DNA of 64,000 nucleotides from positions 47,970-111,969 of IMG/VR virus record IMGVR_UViG_3300025000_000065. The stretch is one strand, 5' to 3'. Within the stretch, counting starts at the first letter, position 1. Every line of letters begins with the position of its first letter. Made by a program: the position numbers and the translations under genes. This DNA comes from a virus. Below, piece after piece: positions 31,739 to 58,707 of this stretch. Below the pieces are notes generated by a model that saw only the letters and a list, made by a program, of their open reading frames with translations, did not search any database and was not told where the DNA came from.

Positions 31739-34432
31739 TTAACCATAAATTGATGCGACATCTCTCACGCTTCCTTGTCTAACAAGAGTAGAATTGATTT
31801 CTTTTATAACATCTCTAGCAATGTCTTTTATTTTTGGAATTGTTTTTTCAATTACATCACCTTGAACCGTAATTAAACTTTCAATATTTAAACCTCCAGA
31901 ACCTTGAGCCTTATTAATAATGTTAGCAACACGAGGAATCATCTTTAAGGTTTTCAATATATCATTGTTATTCATTACCTCTTCACCAACAAGAAGTTTA
32001 GAAAGAATTTCACCTGGTAATGTTCTAACTCCACCTACTGCACCAGAAGATAAACCACTATGATGAGTAGGAAGTGTTTCTGTAGATACAACTGGGGAAA
32101 CTCCACCATATAATGCATCTGCTAAATTTCCGTATTTTAATAATGCATCATAAGCTTCATTCCATGCTTCGACAACATCTGTTACAATTCCAGATCCATA
32201 TTCAGAATTCCAATCTATTAATGATTGATATAAATCAGGAGCTTGTTCCCCAATTCTATCTAATGCATCTTGAGCAATTTGACCAGTTTTATCTAAGTAT
32301 TCATCAATAGCAGAAACAGCCTCTTCAATTATTGCAATTTGAGAATCGATGTTTTCTTTATATAGCTCATATTCTTGATCCAGTGCTTCTTCCTGCAAAT
32401 CATAAGATCTATCTCTTTGAGTTTGTTCTAAGTCTTTTTGAGCATCTGCTAATTCTTCAGCGAGTTCTAACTGTCTTGCTTTAGACTCAGCGGAAGTATC
32501 AAGTGCCAAAATTGCCATTTCAGATTGAATCTGAGCAATAGTTTTAGTTTTATCCTCTAGTTCTTCTTGATATTCTACGGATTCTTGTTCTGCTCTTAAG
32601 ATTTCTTTTTTGGCATCTATAATTTCTTCATAAGCGTCAAGTTGTGCTTCTAATCCATCTATTTGATCTTTTAAAGCATCTTTTCTTGCGTTTTGCTCCG
32701 CTTTAATTAAACTAATGACTAGATTGTGAAGATCTTTAAGTGTTTTTATTTCTTCTTTTGCAGCAGCAGAAGATCCACCACCGCCACCGCCTCCAGCACC
32801 ACCACCTGAATATCCAGGAAAAGCAGATCGAGTTGGAACATTTGTAGGAGGTGGATTGAACGGCAAAGAAACGCCATTTAGAATATCATCACCCATTGGT
32901 TCTGTACTTTGATTAGAAATAACATTTCCACTTGTAGTAACAACAAAATTTAAATAATAATCTCCACTTATCGCATTTGCAGCATTTCCAATATTTAAAA
33001 TGTTACCAATTGCTATTGCAGCAGCTTCATAAGATCCATTTGCTAAATCAATCATGGCTTGATCCATTGAACCCAATACTCTTACAGTTTCCGATCCCAT
33101 GAATCCCCAAGCTGTCATCATATCAGCAGCCATAGTATAGGCTACATTTTTAGCTTCATTGCCTAAAGTAGATAATTGTATTCTTTGAATAAATGTACTA
33201 ACGATAGATGCCTGAAGAGATTTCTCATAAGCATCAGCGGTTTTTAAAATATCCTGTTCAACATTATATAATTCATATTGTAGATCACCCAATTGAGTTA
33301 ATTGCTCATCTGATAATGTTGGTTGTTCTGAAAGTAATCGTATTTCTTCTCTTAATTCTGCCGCTTGAATTCCTGCTTTTTCTTGTTTTTCGTGATAAGA
33401 ATCAAATGCTTTTCCAAATGAATCATCGAGTATATATTGCAGATTATCAAATGCTTGAGATAATTCTTCTGTGCTATCAAAGATTTGACCATGCGCACGT
33501 CTCCAAGCTGTTACCCAAGTATCTAATTCTGCTTTCGTAGCATTAAATAAACCGAGTTCAGCATCAGTAAGAGTTCCAAAATCTTCAGCGGTTTTTACTA
33601 TAACCTTTCCTCCGCTGCTTACAACTCTTATTAACTCACCGTTTTCACCGATGGTATATCCAGCAATTTCCGCTGCTCTTTCTACTGCTTCAATATAATC
33701 ATTATAATTACCTGTTGTATCTTTTAGTGTGGAAATTACTTCTTTCAATCCTTGATCAAGTATTTTTTGTTTATTTACAAAAAGATCAGCTATAATTCCT
33801 GCTCTATTATGAGCTTCATTAACGGAATCCACCATTTTTTTGTATTCACCCATTACTTGTTCGGTGGTCTTAATTTCTTCACCTAAATTTTTAAAAGCAT
33901 TAGACCAAGCATTAGTTGTATTTTCTAATCCTAAATCTTGCTGTTTCTTAACTGTTTGTTGATATGTTATAATTACAGCAGTTAAAGCAACAATTGCGAT
34001 TTGAAAAATTGAAACCCAAGATATAGTTGTTTTTAATAAAAGTTGCAAACTAACTAATGAAAAAGAAAATCCTTGTATAGCCGTAGTTGCACCCATAATT
34101 TTAATAATAAAATTTGCCATTGCTTGGGCACTTAAAACTCCAACCAAACCAATAAGAGATTCTAAAATAGGAATTAGTCCACCCATAGAATCAATTGCTT
34201 CAACAGAAGAAATTCCTAAGTCTAAAAAGAATTTAATGACATCATCATCGATTGCTTTTTGCCATAGGTTTTCCATTGCTGCCTTTAATGTATTTGCTTT
34301 TCCCTCTATGGAATCCATGTAAATTTTATATCGTTCTGTAGCCAATCCAACAGAATGAAGTTGTTGTTCTTGAGCTTCTAGTACCTGGTTGTAGTTTTCC
34401 ATCAAAATTAAAAAATTTTCGCGTTGCCGAAC
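31739..34432 (-). CDS. Tape measure protein, exon 2
   Basis: In-frame VRQRENFLILMENY continues exon 1 (...NAIAG); long helical, coiled-coil and hydrophobic segments. Confidence 0.85.
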   Translation of the reverse strand, partial: VRQRENFLILMENYNQVLEAQEQQLHSVGLATERYKIYMDSIEGKANTLKAAMENLWQKAIDDDVIKFFLDLGISSVEAIDSMGGLIPILESLIGLVGVLSAQAMANFIIKIMGATTAIQGFSFSLVSLQLLLKTTISWVSIFQIAIVALTAVIITYQQTVKKQQDLGLENTTNAWSNAFKNLGEEIKTTEQVMGEYKKMVDSVNEAHNRAGIIADLFVNKQKILDQGLKEVISTLKDTTGNYNDYIEAVERAAEIAGYTIGENGELIRVVSSGGKVIVKTAEDFGTLTDAELGLFNATKAELDTWVTAWRRAHGQIFDSTEELSQAFDNLQYILDDSFGKAFDSYHEKQEKAGIQAAELREEIRLLSEQPTLSDEQLTQLGDLQYELYNVEQDILKTADAYEKSLQASIVSTFIQRIQLSTLGNEAKNVAYTMAADMMTAWGFMGSETVRVLGSMDQAMIDLANGSYEAAAIAIGNILNIGNAANAISGDYYLNFVVTTSGNVISNQSTEPMGDDILNGVSLPFNPPPTNVPTRSAFPGYSGGGAGGGGGGGSSAAAKEEIKTLKDLHNLVISLIKAEQNARKDALKDQIDGLEAQLDAYEEIIDAKKEILRAEQESVEYQEELEDKTKTIAQIQSEMAILALDTSAESKARQLELAEELADAQKDLEQTQRDRSYDLQEEALDQEYELYKENIDSQIAIIEEAVSAIDEYLDKTGQIAQDALDRIGEQAPDLYQSLIDWNSEYGSGIVTDVVEAWNEAYDALLKYGNLADALYGGVSPVVSTETLPTHHSGLSSGAVGGVRTLPGEILSKLLVGEEVMNNNDILKTLKMIPRVANIINKAQGSGGLNIESLITVQGDVIEKTIPKIKDIARDVIKEINSTLVRQGSVRDVASIYG

Positions 34433-35941
34433 TTTTCTGTTGCTTTCACACCGCGAAGCATGTTACTGACCATTTTACAATGGCGATTAAGTATTTCTAC
34501 TTAATTCTGCAATTTCTTTTTGTTATAGTTGCAGAGCAGACCATATCTTTTTCTTGTTTTATACAAGAAAGATGACGCGGGAATTTATGTCACCACAAAC
34601 ACCCAATTGGTCGTTACGGATTCTCAAAAATTATAAATAATGACTAAAAATTGTGTGTAGTTTAGTCAAATCTTTTCTAAAAATTTCTATTAATTTAATA
34701 TTATTATCTTTACAAATATTTCTTTTTTCTTTCATTCTCTCAAAATAAAAAATTTTTTCTGGCATTCCAAAAAATTCTACAAATATATTTTTTTCAATTA
34801 CCCAATCAACTCGTTTTAATCCACATCTATCATCTTCACAATACTTATTATACATTTCCTCTTTTTTATAATTTATATCATTATCTATTAAAAAATTTGT
34901 TATTGTCAATTCAGACTTGGAAAAACATAAATCTTTATTTGTAGAATAATATGTATTAGATTCTCCAAATAAAGAAGAATTTGAATCTAAATTAGCTAAC
35001 CCACATGCATTTCGATATCCATCAAATCGTCTTTCAAATGTTTTTACAGATGGCAATCCATAAAGAACAAGTTCGCTACCATAAGGAGTTCTTCCTAAAT
35101 ATTCTCCTAATTCTTTTAGTTGTTCTATCATTTGATCTGCATCATACCATTTAACACTTTTTTCTTTAGTTTTATGAAATCCTAATTTAAGTGCCATAGT
35201 TCTTATGCTTTCCGGTTTTCTATTAAGAAAATATTTTTCACTCAAGTATTTATTAGTATAATGAGGATAAACGGTTTTTAATAATTTTATATCTTCGTTT
35301 GTCCAAGTTTTATTTACTTTCAATCTTAAATTATTTATTTTTGCATAAACACCAGATAAAGTTCGATTTAATTTTTTAGCAATTTCTTCATAAGATAATG
35401 TATCATAATTTTTTATTAAAAAATCAATTTCATCAGGTGAATAATCTCTGTTTTTTTCAACAATTATATTCAACTCAGAAGATTTATGACGAATTGAATC
35501 AATATTATTATTTTCTAAATTTTTCATTAATAACTCATAATTTCCACTAGGATATAATTCTTTTAATATTTTAATCCTATCATCCGTCCACTGATATCTT
35601 CCAATTCCCCAAGAAGAAATTAAATTTAATATTGTTGAAGAACATCTATTTACTTTTTTACATATTTCGTTTAATGGAATCTTATTATAATTATCTTTAA
35701 TATAATCTAATTCATTAGGCGTCAATGGTTTCTTTTTCATACTGTTTAATTATCCTTTTAAAAATATTCGCTACACATCAAATATTTTTTAATAATTTAT
35801 TTTTTTTTATAATTTTTGAGTCTTTCCTCGGAATTGTCTGCTTCCAGAGTTTTTCCGATATGGTCATCTTCTGAGATTTTTATTCTAATTATAGAAAATG
35901 CAATCTCTATATGTTACCATATATTCTGGCATTCTATTTTT
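34433..35941 (-). mobile_element. Group I intron (1509 nt) in the tape-measure gene
   Basis: P1 CUGGU/GCCAG with U-G at the 5' splice site; P3 GAUGAC/GUCAUC; P7 (A)cGACCA/UGGUC(U) within CCGUAACGACCA and AAGAUAUGGUCU; 15-bp stem flanking the ORF. Removing it restores the reading frame. Confidence 0.88.
34631..35740 (-). CDS. Intron-encoded putative homing endonuclease
   Basis: N-terminal HTH/Myb-like repeats (WT..I..LK..YP), LGRTP...LPS..TF.RRF repeat, and C-terminal SKSE...RVDW...VEFFG PD-(D/E)xK-like domain. Confidence 0.75.
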   Translation of the reverse strand: MKKKPLTPNELDYIKDNYNKIPLNEICKKVNRCSSTILNLISSWGIGRYQWTDDRIKILKELYPSGNYELLMKNLENNNIDSIRHKSSELNIIVEKNRDYSPDEIDFLIKNYDTLSYEEIAKKLNRTLSGVYAKINNLRLKVNKTWTNEDIKLLKTVYPHYTNKYLSEKYFLNRKPESIRTMALKLGFHKTKEKSVKWYDADQMIEQLKELGEYLGRTPYGSELVLYGLPSVKTFERRFDGYRNACGLANLDSNSSLFGESNTYYSTNKDLCFSKSELTITNFLIDNDINYKKEEMYNKYCEDDRCGLKRVDWVIEKNIFVEFFGMPEKIFYFERMKEKRNICKDNNIKLIEIFRKDLTKLHTIFSHYL

Positions 35942-37126
35942 ACCAGCAATAGCATTTGCAACCGCACTTTGCTCTATTTCATTCATCGTAGACCATTTTT
36001 CAGCAATTTCATCCATTACATCACCCATAGGTCTAAATGAAGTAGCGGTATCTCTTAATCTGATATTGACTAAACCCAATGCTCTTTCAACATCGTTAAT
36101 ATTTGTTTTATCATCTTCAAACATTTTTCCAAGTTTAATGTTTTCTAAACGAGCGAACATCGTCTTCATACTTTGACCTATCGACTCAGCGGAGCGGCGT
36201 GAAACGCTCGAAATCGTAGCAATGTAACTTGTCAACTCATCAAAACTAACTCCTGCTTGTTGAGCAGAAGCAGCAGAATATTGTAGTGCTGTGGCAATTT
36301 CATTAGCCGAGGTTGCCATCCGATTATCCAAATCGATTATTTTATCAACAACCAAACTAGCATCCTCAGCCTCTAACTTAAATCCATTCAAAGTAGCTGT
36401 TAGTTTTTCAGTTGAATCTGCGGATTCCATGTTTCCTAACTTACTCAACATCAAAGTTGACTTCATTAATTCAGAGGTTTCTTCAATTGTCTTTCCTTGC
36501 CTGAACCATTCGAGGCTTCCCTGTGCCACCTGAATTGTTGTAGCACCCATTTCTTTTGCAAGTTTATTATATTCAACCGCTAATCTGTCAACTTCATCGG
36601 CAGTCATTCCCGTAACAATTTGAACATTTGTTAACTCTTTGTTCAAATCTTTAATATATTGTATTCCTTCTTCTATTTTTCGAAGACTTCCATAAATAGC
36701 TTGTGTTGCAAGAAACCATATTGCAACTTTTTTAATAGCAACTTCAAGCATGGATGTAAATCCATAACCATCTTTAGTCGTATTTTTCATAGAAGCACCG
36801 ACTTTAGTAACAGAAGTTCTTAAATCATCAAAACTTCCCCTTACGTCTTGAATAGAAGCACCACCCCTTTGAGAAAAACTAGTAATGTTATCTTGAAGAA
36901 CCTTTAACGATGCTTGAACGTCTGCGTTATTAAAAATATCTGGAGATTTAAATTGCATTCTTGCAATTTGATTATTCCACTGTTTAACATAAGAATCAAT
37001 ATCTTTCTGCCCCATATTGATACTTGTTGTTATTTTAATATTTTTAGTTTTTCTATCTAATTTATCTTGAAGACCTGTAACATCAGGTTCAATGCCAACT
37101 ATAATATTATAACCACCATTAGCCAT
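35942..37126 (-). CDS. Tape measure protein, exon 1 (spliced product about 1292 aa)
   Basis: TP901-type TMP core (ELTNVQIVTG, EWFRQG, SAESIGQSMKTMFARL); GGAGG SD before ATG 37126. Confidence 0.88.
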
Positions 37127-37164
37127 TAATAACCCTCCTTTCAACCTCTAGAAAAGAGGCAATT

Positions 37165-38160
37165 TCATAAACCAAACATTTTATCTATAATTTCGTCTGT
37201 ATGATCTTTTGAATAATCTAAAGTAGTTTTTGGATCGGAATGATGAAGATAGACTTGAACTTGTTCCAAACTAAATTTTTTAGGAACTCCATCTTTATCT
37301 AAAATTCTTTTATCTTCTCCTTGTAATAAACATTCACATCTCGAATGTCGATAACTATGGGGAAAAATATTCATTTGCTTTCCTTCAATTTCACTCAAAA
37401 TTTCTCTTATTTTTAAAACCCAATCATAAATCATTTCATAAGAGGCTTCTCTTTTTTTATCACCACTACCAACAATCCATAAAGATTCAACATTATCTTC
37501 TCCACGTTTATCCAACCAAAGTCTTATTAATTCCTTGGTATCGTCTAGGTAAATTAATGGAAATATCTTTCCTCTTTTTCCTATGACTGCGTTAGTCTTA
37601 TTACTATTTAAAAGATTGTATTTTTTTATTTGAGCAATTTCATTTCTTCTTGCTCCACTATCAAACATCATCATATGGAGTAAAGCAAGTTGAATTTCCC
37701 CCATTTCCAATAACTTTTCTTTTACCCTTATGATTTGATCAAAAGTCATAAAAAAAGAATCTTCATCAGTTCTAACAGGCTCTTTCGGTAGTCCTTTTAT
37801 TTTTTGAGCCTGATTAATATCATATTCATATTCATCAGAATCTTCAATATAAGAAAGCATACTTCTACAACAACTCATTACTCTATTTACTCTAGCATTT
37901 GACATTTTTAAATCATCACTTAACCAAATGCTAAGTTTTCTAAAATCTCTTTTTCCTAATTCTAATAAATTTCTATTTCCGCAAAATCTTTTTACAAAAA
38001 TATTAATTATTCTGAGATCATTTTCATATTGTTTTATTGTACTTGCTTTCATTTTTCGTTGCTGATATTCTTCTAAGAAGTCCTGAACAATATCTTTGTT
38101 TTCTATATTTATGTGGGAATATTCTTCATCTGTGTATATTCTATTATATACTCTGCTCAC
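37165..38160 (-). CDS. Tyrosine recombinase (integrase/Xer family)
   Basis: SGARRNE, GKRGK, PHSYRH and LHHSD.KTT.DY; the R-K-HxxR-H-Y catalytic set appears intact. Confidence 0.9.
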   Translation of the reverse strand: MSRVYNRIYTDEEYSHINIENKDIVQDFLEEYQQRKMKASTIKQYENDLRIINIFVKRFCGNRNLLELGKRDFRKLSIWLSDDLKMSNARVNRVMSCCRSMLSYIEDSDEYEYDINQAQKIKGLPKEPVRTDEDSFFMTFDQIIRVKEKLLEMGEIQLALLHMMMFDSGARRNEIAQIKKYNLLNSNKTNAVIGKRGKIFPLIYLDDTKELIRLWLDKRGEDNVESLWIVGSGDKKREASYEMIYDWVLKIREILSEIEGKQMNIFPHSYRHSRCECLLQGEDKRILDKDGVPKKFSLEQVQVYLHHSDPKTTLDYSKDHTDEIIDKMFGL

Positions 38161-38169
38161 ATTCCCTCC

Positions 38170-38625
38170 TTATAAAATTCCTTGCTGTTTGAAATAAGTT
38201 AATCCAACAGCTAAAGAATCAGATTCATCATCATTATTAATTACTACATCTTTCCATTGTTTTAAAACAGATTTTTTAACTTGTTCTTTATCTGCTTTAC
38301 CACTTCCTGTAACGGTTTTTTTTACTGTAGTTGCAGGAATATAAATTTGTTCAGACTTCCATAATAAACAATTTATTACACCAACACATCGATAGATCTG
38401 TTGGGTAACTGTCCCAAACTTGGAAAACCCCTTTTCGATAATGACTAAATCAAATTCATATCGTTTTTTTAAATTAATAAAGAAATCTGCAATTTTTTTT
38501 AATCTAATTTGTGTTAAATCTTTTGGTGAAGTGGGAACACTAAAAACTTCAATTACATTTCCCTTTTCATCAAAAATAGATCCACCAGTATTCACCAATG
38601 AAATATCTAATGCTAAAATATACAT
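38170..38625 (-). CDS. ruvC: RuvC-like Holliday junction resolvase
   Basis: ILALDISLVNTG, IIEK, VKKTVTGSGKADKEQV and DESDSLAV. Confidence 0.9.
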   Translation of the reverse strand: MYILALDISLVNTGGSIFDEKGNVIEVFSVPTSPKDLTQIRLKKIADFFINLKKRYEFDLVIIEKGFSKFGTVTQQIYRCVGVINCLLWKSEQIYIPATTVKKTVTGSGKADKEQVKKSVLKQWKDVVINNDDESDSLAVGLTYFKQQGIL

Positions 38626-47465: not shown

Positions 47466-48218
47466 CTACACTTTATTTTTTGTGATTTCTAAAAATGCAA
47501 CAGAATCCTCATATTTTTGGTTCAAATCCATATTCATTATTCTGGCTAATTTATCAAATAAATTTAAATCTATTGTTTCACCATTAATTCTTTTATCAAT
47601 AATCATGGTTGCTAAAATTTTTTGTTGTTCTTTTGGTGCTGATTTTGCAAAAGTTAAAATATCATTTTCTTTTACTTCACCACCTTGAAAACCCAAAAGT
47701 ATCATGTCCATCTTTTCTTTGTTCATAATGTTTTTGTAAACATCATCTAGACCATGTTTTCTAACAACCCTTCTATCTAAAATAACGAAAAATCCTCTTT
47801 CAAGAAAATGTCTGTTTTCTTCAATTATTTTTTCTAATTCTTGATAAATAATTCTTTTTGTTTTACCGTATCCCCTAAAAGTAAATATCCTTCCTCTTCC
47901 ATGTCTTTCTGTACTTATATTCAATTCATATGGAATTAAAGACATTACTTTTATATAAGAATTCAAAGGAACTTCTTCCTCTTCTTCGTAAACATAGTTT
48001 TCTTCTACATCATCTTCAGAATCTTTTTTAGTTGTCAAATTAGAATTATTTTTTATATTATTTTGAAGATCTTTAATCATTTTATAAATATTTTCTAATT
48101 CTGTTTTTTTAATAATTACGGTTTCTTCCTCTGAAGATTTTGACTGAGAATTTTCAACTAAATCTTTATTTTCCGCATTTTGCGATTTATCTTTTGGAGG
48201 TCTTCCTCTTGTTGCCAT
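47466..48218 (-). CDS. Hypothetical head-module protein
   Basis: 250-aa ORF downstream of the capsid gene; N-terminal RGRPP. Confidence 0.6.
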   Translation of the reverse strand: MATRGRPPKDKSQNAENKDLVENSQSKSSEEETVIIKKTELENIYKMIKDLQNNIKNNSNLTTKKDSEDDVEENYVYEEEEEVPLNSYIKVMSLIPYELNISTERHGRGRIFTFRGYGKTKRIIYQELEKIIEENRHFLERGFFVILDRRVVRKHGLDDVYKNIMNKEKMDMILLGFQGGEVKENDILTFAKSAPKEQQKILATMIIDKRINGETIDLNLFDKLARIMNMDLNQKYEDSVAFLEITKNKV

Positions 48219-58632: not shown

Positions 58633-58707
58633 TAAAGGTGACTGGATTTGAACCAGTGATATCTACTTCCCAAAAGTAGCGCCTTAACCAGACTCGACTA
58701 CACCTTT
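58633..58707 (-). tRNA. tRNA-Pro (UGG), CCA not encoded
   Basis: Acceptor stem AAAGGUG/CACCUUU; anticodon arm CUACU-UUUGGGA-AGUAG; T arm ACUGG-UUCAAAU-CCAGU; discriminator A. Confidence 0.88.

Follow-up and report, generated by a model that had tools for sequence, protein, structure and literature searches.

A phage tape-measure gene intron that appears to end in adenosine rather than guanosine

Group I introns are expected to end in a guanosine, omega-G, and both textbooks and the rules for finding introns treat this as universal. The gene analysed here, which encodes a phage tape-measure protein (TMP), raises the question of whether such an intron can end in A instead. It lies in a stretch of 64,000 nucleotides (nt), hereafter called the window, of the IMG/VR virus record IMGVR_UViG_3300025000_000065 (positions 47,970 to 111,969), and the window sits within a 112-kb IMG/VR viral contig. 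The TMP gene is on the minus strand and is divided into two exons by an insert, and both halves match PHROG 4211 (tape measure protein; E 8e-50 for exon 1). The insert is predicted to be a group I intron whose last base is A34433, and its place among the rare known group I introns without omega-G is well supported. The three parts of the locus are:

35942-37144, minus strand: TMP exon 1, 401 codons, ending ...AIAG, with the final GGU at 35944-35942
34433-35941, minus strand: predicted group I intron of the td-like subgroup IA2, 1509 nt, with boundaries taken from the intron-less alleles L009, L012 and L010
31739-34432, minus strand: TMP exon 2, 897 open codons, starting GUU CGG CAA (VRQ), with its match to PHROG 4211

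The limits of the insert were read from TMP alleles without it. Relatives of the locus were recovered by protein and pattern searches, and the intron-less alleles among them read GCTGGT^GTTCGG (L009), GCTGGT^GTAAGG (L012) and GCCGGA^GTTCGG (L010), where the caret marks the position of the insert and, in what follows, a splice junction. Relative to these alleles the insert is exactly 35941-34433, beginning AAAAAU and ending AGAAAA (the intron 3' end reads ...ACAGAAAA), and its boundary is unable to slide because the flanking bases differ from the ends of the insert. With the boundary fixed in this way, the last base of the insert is A34433, as a preliminary description of this DNA had proposed. 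By the same comparison the window intron is without a terminal guanosine, whereas sister introns at the same codon have the G.

The same 3' end, ...AACAGAAAA^GTTCGG with a single G, is present in four diverged lineages that come from separate assemblies:

Window and L007: intron identical in the two, with 51 single-nucleotide polymorphisms (SNPs) in the flanking 7 kb
L006, L008 and L022: about 78% identical to the window across 1.8 kb of alignment, which covers the intron and flanking exon
L017 and L020: third lineage ending in A
L028: natural 343-nt copy with the A ending and without an open reading frame (ORF)

The ribozyme cores of these four lineages are 83-97% identical, and compensatory changes are found within the clade, such as those from C-G to U-A in helix P7 and from U-A to C-G in helix P2. 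Two further intron types, with a homologous endonuclease ORF, are inserted at the same TMP codon:

L015, L013 and L024, with the ORF-less L029: sister type 1, ending ...AACAGAUUUG^GUAAGG, omega-G
L014, L016, L018 and L021, and L023: sister type 2, ending ...AACAGAUUUUG^GUACGA, omega-G

These sister introns end canonically in G (...UUUG^GUA and ...UUUUG^GUA). Surveyed for the terminal A claimed for the window intron, the related TMP introns comprise four lineages that keep it and sisters at the same codon that end in G. The two ORF-less copies, L028 (DAKN01000040.1, omega-A) and L029 (DHGE01000179.1, omega-G), are short contigs binned as a Pacearchaeota archaeon metagenome-assembled genome (MAG) and a Deferribacterales MAG; they encode phage TMP, and mis-binning of phage DNA is the probable explanation.

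The assignment of A34433 to the omega position is also supported by the two helices that align the exons, for which the internal guide of the intron provides one strand each:

35946-35942 with 35930-35926, minus strand: P1, CUGGU with GCCAG, including the U.G wobble U35942.G35930
35934-35926, minus strand: internal guide, GAAU (P10 strand, 35934-35931) and then immediately GCCAG (P1 strand, 35930-35926)
35934-35931 with 34432-34429, minus strand: P10, guide GAAU with exon 2 GUUC, adjoining P1

Exon 1 ends ...GCU AUU GCU GGU, with 35942 as its last base. The preliminary description had taken P1 to fix the 5' splice site after GCU GGU, and this is upheld by the family: all six pairs are invariant in five members, including the U.G pair and the adjoining A-U pair, and both P1 and the joining segment J1/2 (AA) are common to the three intron types. 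The in-register P10 that it had described is likewise present and covaries across these types, the exon and guide strands reading GUUC/GAAU in the window and GUAA/UUAU and GUAC/GUAU in the sisters, with changes at +3 and +4. The exon +1 G pairs with the U beside the guide G in all three types. This covariation therefore fixes the register, in which G34432 is exon +1 and A34433 occupies the omega slot.

Starting exon 2 at G34432 restores the frame, as had been noted, since GUU CGG CAA is in frame with the 897-codon ORF, and exon 2 can be aligned to intron-less TMPs from residue V1 onward. On the other side, Pfam PhageMin_Tail spans exon 1 residues 193-401 and stops exactly at the exon end. The motif AGxRQ is contiguous in more than 100 TMP homologues, with an invariant R-Q and no insertion; among about 105 homologues its x is most often V (55), followed by I (25), T (11), Q (6) and L (5). 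The GUU frame of exon 2 is open to the contig ends in all four omega-A lineages, except for L028, where the sole apparent stop lies after a scaffold gap (NN), and exon 1 is open upstream for 402 codons in the window, 407 in L017, 90 in L006 and 78 in L028. Between the window and L007, exon 1 shows 12 synonymous and 4 non-synonymous codon differences, and the two exons together, in their assigned frames, show 26 synonymous against 8 non-synonymous differences; on this basis both exons are under purifying selection in these frames.

The neighbouring G34432 does not serve the reading frame as omega. Its use as such would join U35942 to U34431 and give ...AIAG FGNAKIF and a stop in the window, the outcome already predicted in the preliminary description, and the same choice leads to a stop after 7-17 codons in every omega-A lineage. 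A full enumeration of the canonical in-frame U...G pairs, carried out within about 50 nt, gave none that restores AGxRQ. The window intron cannot obey both textbook rules, a U at the 5' site and a G at the 3' site, at once.

In our view it is fairly probable, judging from the sequences, that the exons are ligated as GGU^GUU with A at the omega position. The first step would be standard, with attack after U35942, the U of the wobble pair, by an exogenous G that occupies the unchanged G-C site of P7. In the second step U35942 would be joined to G34432, giving the junction GGU^GUU and the protein ...AIAG-VRQRENF..., and the nucleotide leaving at omega would be A34433 rather than G. The 3' site would be chosen mainly by P10, GUUC/GAAU being stacked directly on P1, with G34432 held as exon +1 in a G.U pair and kept out of the G pocket. 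Only a few TMP copies are needed per virion, so that weak ligation with omega-A may be tolerable, and we infer that an A at this position can support enough exon ligation.

Several points weigh against this proposal. Searches of protein databases gave no spliced-transcript product and no junction-spanning fragment. The G-binding pair is still G-C and nothing in the core is adapted to bind A, given that P7 and J8/7 do not differ between L017 (omega-A) and L015 (omega-G); moreover, G34432 is only one base away and should compete for the G pocket. The omega-A clade is also without the 2-bp P9.0 of its sisters. J7/9 and the tail track the ending: in the omega-G types J7/9 is AA and faces UU before the G, forming this P9.0, whereas in the omega-A clade J7/9 is CU, as in the T4 td intron, the tail is AAAA, and no adjacent partner for J7/9 CU was found before the splice site. 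Finally, a comparison with the alleles that have Ile (AGIRQ, 25 of about 105 homologues) would divide this DNA as GGTA^...G^TTCGG.

The complement of J7/9 CU, AG, is found at 34438-34437 and across the junction at 34433-34432; in the second case CU (34536-34535) is complementary to an AG made of omega-A and G34432, which spans the proposed 3' junction. The omega-A and omega-G types differ mainly in J7/9, in the last few bases of the tail and in the P10 guide.

The parsing suggested by the Ile alleles places both splice sites one base later, with the cut after A35941, G34432 as omega, and the in-frame product GGU AUU CGG (AIAG-I-RQ). With these sites the G-binding site is canonical, UUC/GAA still gives a 3-bp P10, and the Watson-Crick pair A35941-U35931 extends P1 in all family members; Ile is also the second commonest residue at x of AGxRQ (25, against 55 for V), and the shifted product would be acceptable as a protein. 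However, P1, its wobble and J1/2 (AA) are the same as in the omega-G sisters, which must cut after U to obtain Val, and it is the wobble pair itself that the group I active site recognises. Furthermore, G and not A is found at this position (GTT or GTA) in the closest intron-less alleles. Non-U 5' splice sites do have a precedent, if only in the group B IStrons (BcISt1 and relatives), in which the U of the U-G pair is not the last base of the 5' exon (PMC4227781), but there the U belongs to the intron and the cut falls one base before it, whereas the shifted sites require a cut one base after it, and these elements are transposon chimeras, not homing introns. We regard the shifted sites as unlikely.

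A 5' cut after U35942 could instead be combined with a cryptic in-frame G, the junction falling after G34451 or G34454, which adds 6-7 residues ((R)CESNRK), or after G34427, with the loss of Val-Arg. No other canonical U...G options have a P1-supported 5' site, keep the frame and avoid a stop, and none of the four lineages has a stop in the 18-nt tail in that frame, the two variable sites of the tail being at third codon positions. Both variable sites would fall on third positions by chance in about 1 of 9 cases, however, and the omega-G sisters conserve the tail GAAAGYAACAGA too, as sequence that certainly belongs to the intron. P10 cannot form at the cryptic sites, and the contiguity of AGxRQ in the homologues speaks against an insertion of CESNRK or a deletion of VR here. 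We regard the cryptic sites as very improbable.

Hardly more credible is a normal 5' cut with G34432 used mostly or only as omega, which would give a frameshifted mRNA and a truncated TMP; splicing would then yield no full-length TMP, the gene being split or decaying. This explanation draws on the adjacency of G34432 and on the strong preference of the unchanged pocket for G. Against it stand the purifying selection on both exons and the openness of exon 2 in four lineages (the L028 scaffold gap aside). In the window no ribosome-binding site was found ahead of the first in-frame start of exon 2. The ribozyme helices keep their compensatory changes within the omega-A clade, and an ORF-less copy (L028) is maintained. 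A rescue of the reading frame through frameshifting, or through slippage of transcription, at the U-run that follows the junction was also considered and rejected, the run being absent in L006.

The loss of one G from a GG at the 3' splice site by sequencing or assembly error, a reservation made in the preliminary description, has next to no probability even for a metagenome-assembled viral contig such as this one, as the single G recurs in at least seven contigs from different samples and in four lineages with cores down to 83% identical, and a pattern admitting ...AAAAGGTTCGG found no such form in viral, metagenome or genome collections. Taken across these sequences, assembly error does not account for the single G that follows AAAA.

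Within the omega-A reading preferred here, the two competing 3' sites might act as a valve for the dosage or timing of TMP, with P10-guided use of A34433 giving the full-length protein and use of G34432 by the G pocket giving a stop after seven codons. We consider this extension doubtful, and the throttling of TMP output by the neighbouring G, which the preliminary description had raised, is likewise speculative. If it were true, the ratio of A34433 to G34432 splicing might respond to GTP or Mg2+ levels.

The predicted fold of the insert 34433-35941 identifies it as a td-like (IA2) group I intron. In addition to P1 and P10, its elements are:

35923-35908, minus strand: P2, with a GUAA loop
35907-35902 with 35878-35873, minus strand: P2.1
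35868-35863 with 34576-34571, minus strand: P3, 5' strand GAUGAC and 3' strand GUCAUC, from RNAalifold on ORF-less constructs
35858-35853 with 35833-35828, minus strand: P4
35848-35837, minus strand: P5, with a GAAG loop; J4/5 and J5/4 are A-rich
34623-35820, minus strand: P6, a 14-bp stem of CUCAAAAAUUAUAA (35820-35807) with UUAUAAUUUUUGAG (34636-34623)
Between P6 and P7, minus strand: J6/7, GUAA
34613-34609 with 34542-34537, minus strand: P7, CGACC with GGUCUG, containing the G-binding G-C pair, U34538 bulged
34604-34579, minus strand: P7.1/7.2 hairpin, 10 bp, with a GNRA loop
34570-34550, minus strand: P8
34549-34543, minus strand: J8/7, AAGAUAU
34536-34535, minus strand: J7/9, CU
34534-34507, 34506-34486 and 34483-34470, minus strand: P9, P9.1 and P9.2
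34447-34433, minus strand: conserved tail GAAAGCAACAGAAAA, its last base being omega-A

The pairing of this fold is conserved well beyond what displaced strands would give. Helices P1, P2, P2.1, P4 and P5 are 97% paired in five family members, against 25-49% with their partners slid, and P2, P2.1 and P4 each reach 100% across the family. For P7, P7.1/7.2 and P8 the figure is 88% against 38-52% when slid, with 12 pairs changed on both sides. P7.1/7.2, an extra hairpin that is a hallmark of IA introns, has eight pairs changed on both sides among the aligned introns. The ORF-less constructs support P6 as well as P3. The strands of P6 are exact complements in the window, and L006, L015 and L014 retain the pairing with other sequences; its loop holds the endonuclease ORF in the window and only a short hairpin in L028 and L029. 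The G-binding pair of P7 (G13-C94), which the preliminary description had called canonical, is invariant in six of six aligned introns. An intron of this make-up would be expected to undergo GTP-dependent self-splicing. Two further pairings were set aside, one between the P7.2 loop (CCGC) and the loop of the last hairpin (GCGG), which is not kept in L017, and one given by RNAalifold between J6/7 GUAAC and the tail GYAAC, which shows no covariation.

The agreement with group I models, put forward earlier as a check, turned out to depend on the model. A covariance model of the core (R1), built from the window intron family, gives an end-to-end match to the T4 td core (27.8 bits, E 5.6e-4). Rfam RF00028 (Intron_gpI), by contrast, gave no match to the window region at E up to 10, nor to the ORF-less L028 and L029 at E up to 1. 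In a control, T4 td and nrdB scored 40.3 and 35.7 bits against RF00028, for which the gathering score is 50. As these T4 introns fall below the threshold, RF00028 is insensitive to the IA2 subgroup and its null result on the window carries little weight; Rfam scans at the gathering threshold systematically miss ORF-bearing phage IA2 introns. The sole gathering-level Rfam match in the window is a tRNA gene at 58633-58707 on the minus strand (61.8 bits). Searching the region against phage genomes with blastn gave nothing useful. A second R1 match in the genome (G000:C1:43236-43337, 16 bits) lies within coding sequence and was taken as chance, and the pattern matches L019, L025 and L033-L036 are unrelated chance matches.

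The intron carries an ORF of its own:

34631-35740, minus strand: intron ORF, putative homing endonuclease, 369 amino acids (aa)

Its N-terminal part has helix-turn-helix (HTH) repeats and a homing-endonuclease-associated repeat (Pfam PF18780 HNH_repeat, E 7e-9), and its PHROG matches are 323, 22655 and 1891. In the C-terminal 120 aa no Pfam or PDB match was found, the HTH and endonuclease-associated repeats being all that was recognised; the Atlas neighbours of this part are HNH_repeat clusters. The ORF is intact in the window and in L017 (369 aa, from ATG) and is lacking in L028; in L006 the longest ORF with an ATG start has 298 aa, and it may start at GTG. Alleles with the intron, without the intron and with an ORF-less intron all exist at one TMP site. 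From its sequence, the window intron is classed as a mobile (homing) group I intron with a putative endonuclease.

Compared with L005 and L007, window positions 32975-36853 form a 3.9-kb SNP-free tract that includes the intron and its exon flanks, the 51 SNPs over 7 kb being clustered just outside. This tract looks like the product of co-conversion in a recent homing or recombination event. Relatives have another group I intron, whose endonuclease ORF is a different one, about 75 codons upstream in the same TMP gene, and the window is without it:

About window position 36160, in exon 1 (...SMK^TMFARLEN): second TMP intron site, occupied in L010 (2656-4005), L013 (1167-2516) and the upstream part of L028

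The core of this upstream intron is a weak match to model R1 (14.5 bits). In a human faecal phage (L001, MT835481.1, locus 207-1493), a distant TMP homologue with 36-38% aa identity contains a td-like intron 7 nt upstream of the window site, with a different endonuclease ORF, P1 GUGGU/GCCAC, J7/9 AA and the ending ...AACAGAUUG^G.

Downstream of the TMP gene there are Dit-like and minor-tail genes. Directly upstream, at 37165-38625 on the minus strand, are a tyrosine integrase/recombinase-like gene (PHROG 1, 36816) and a RuvC-like resolvase gene, in the place where tail chaperone genes would usually be expected.

We know of no earlier omega-A case in a td-like phage intron of a virion gene, and the one proposed here comes with omega-G sisters and an ORF-less form. 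Omega-A and omega-G introns at the same codon, with identical P1 and G-binding G-C pair, constitute a natural experiment, and the family could show how far P10 by itself can set the 3' splice site while the G pocket goes unsatisfied. For in vitro work, the 343-nt copy that naturally lacks the ORF would be convenient. There is also a consequence for annotation: under rules that require U...G, this essential tail gene would be annotated as frameshifted or split, and the Rfam group I model misses the whole subgroup.

Introns in tape-measure genes have been described before, the group I introns TMP-IVS1, IVS2 and IVS3 being found in prophages of the Bacillus cereus group (Tourasse and Kolsto 2008, PMC2504315). 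Like the introns analysed here, they are IA1 or IA2, occupy several sites per TMP gene and in part are without a complete endonuclease gene, and related copies adapt P1 and P10 to their sites; a term search of that paper gave no mention of a missing omega-G (PMC2504315). The IA2 intron td of T4, which carries I-TevI, shares with the window intron an extended P6 whose loop contains the endonuclease ORF, a P7.1/7.2 lying between P7 and the P3 3' strand, the motif AGAUAU in J8/7, an identical J7/9 and start of P9 (GUCUGCUCUGCA), and AACA 5 nt before the splice site (AACAUAAUG^). It differs in ending in G (AACAUAAUG^CUAC), in its host gene, and in its GIY-YIG endonuclease, in place of the HNH_repeat-associated ORF of the window intron.

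Among introns without omega-G, the Coxiella burnetii 23S rRNA intron Cbu.L1917 reportedly has A as its terminal base. The title of the paper on it, Raghavan et al. 2007 (J Bacteriol 189:6572), listed in PMC3428280, describes a natural group I intron lacking omega-G. It resides, however, in an rRNA gene of an intracellular bacterium, and it is not known to have an omega-G sister at the same site; both introns of Coxiella, IB2 and IA3 (PMC10136302), belong to subgroups other than that of the window intron. The preliminary description was right to name Coxiella as a natural precedent, but it is not the only one, as the hexacoral mitochondrial intron ND5-717 is also without omega-G. The last base of ND5-717 is A, and its exons are perfectly ligated in vivo; in corallimorphs it is removed by back-splicing (PMC8146996, PMC6545197). 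Unlike a mobile phage IA2 intron, ND5-717 is organellar and obligatory, is inherited vertically and holds whole genes in its P8, but like the intron of the window, as read here, it is an omega-A intron within a gene that encodes a protein.

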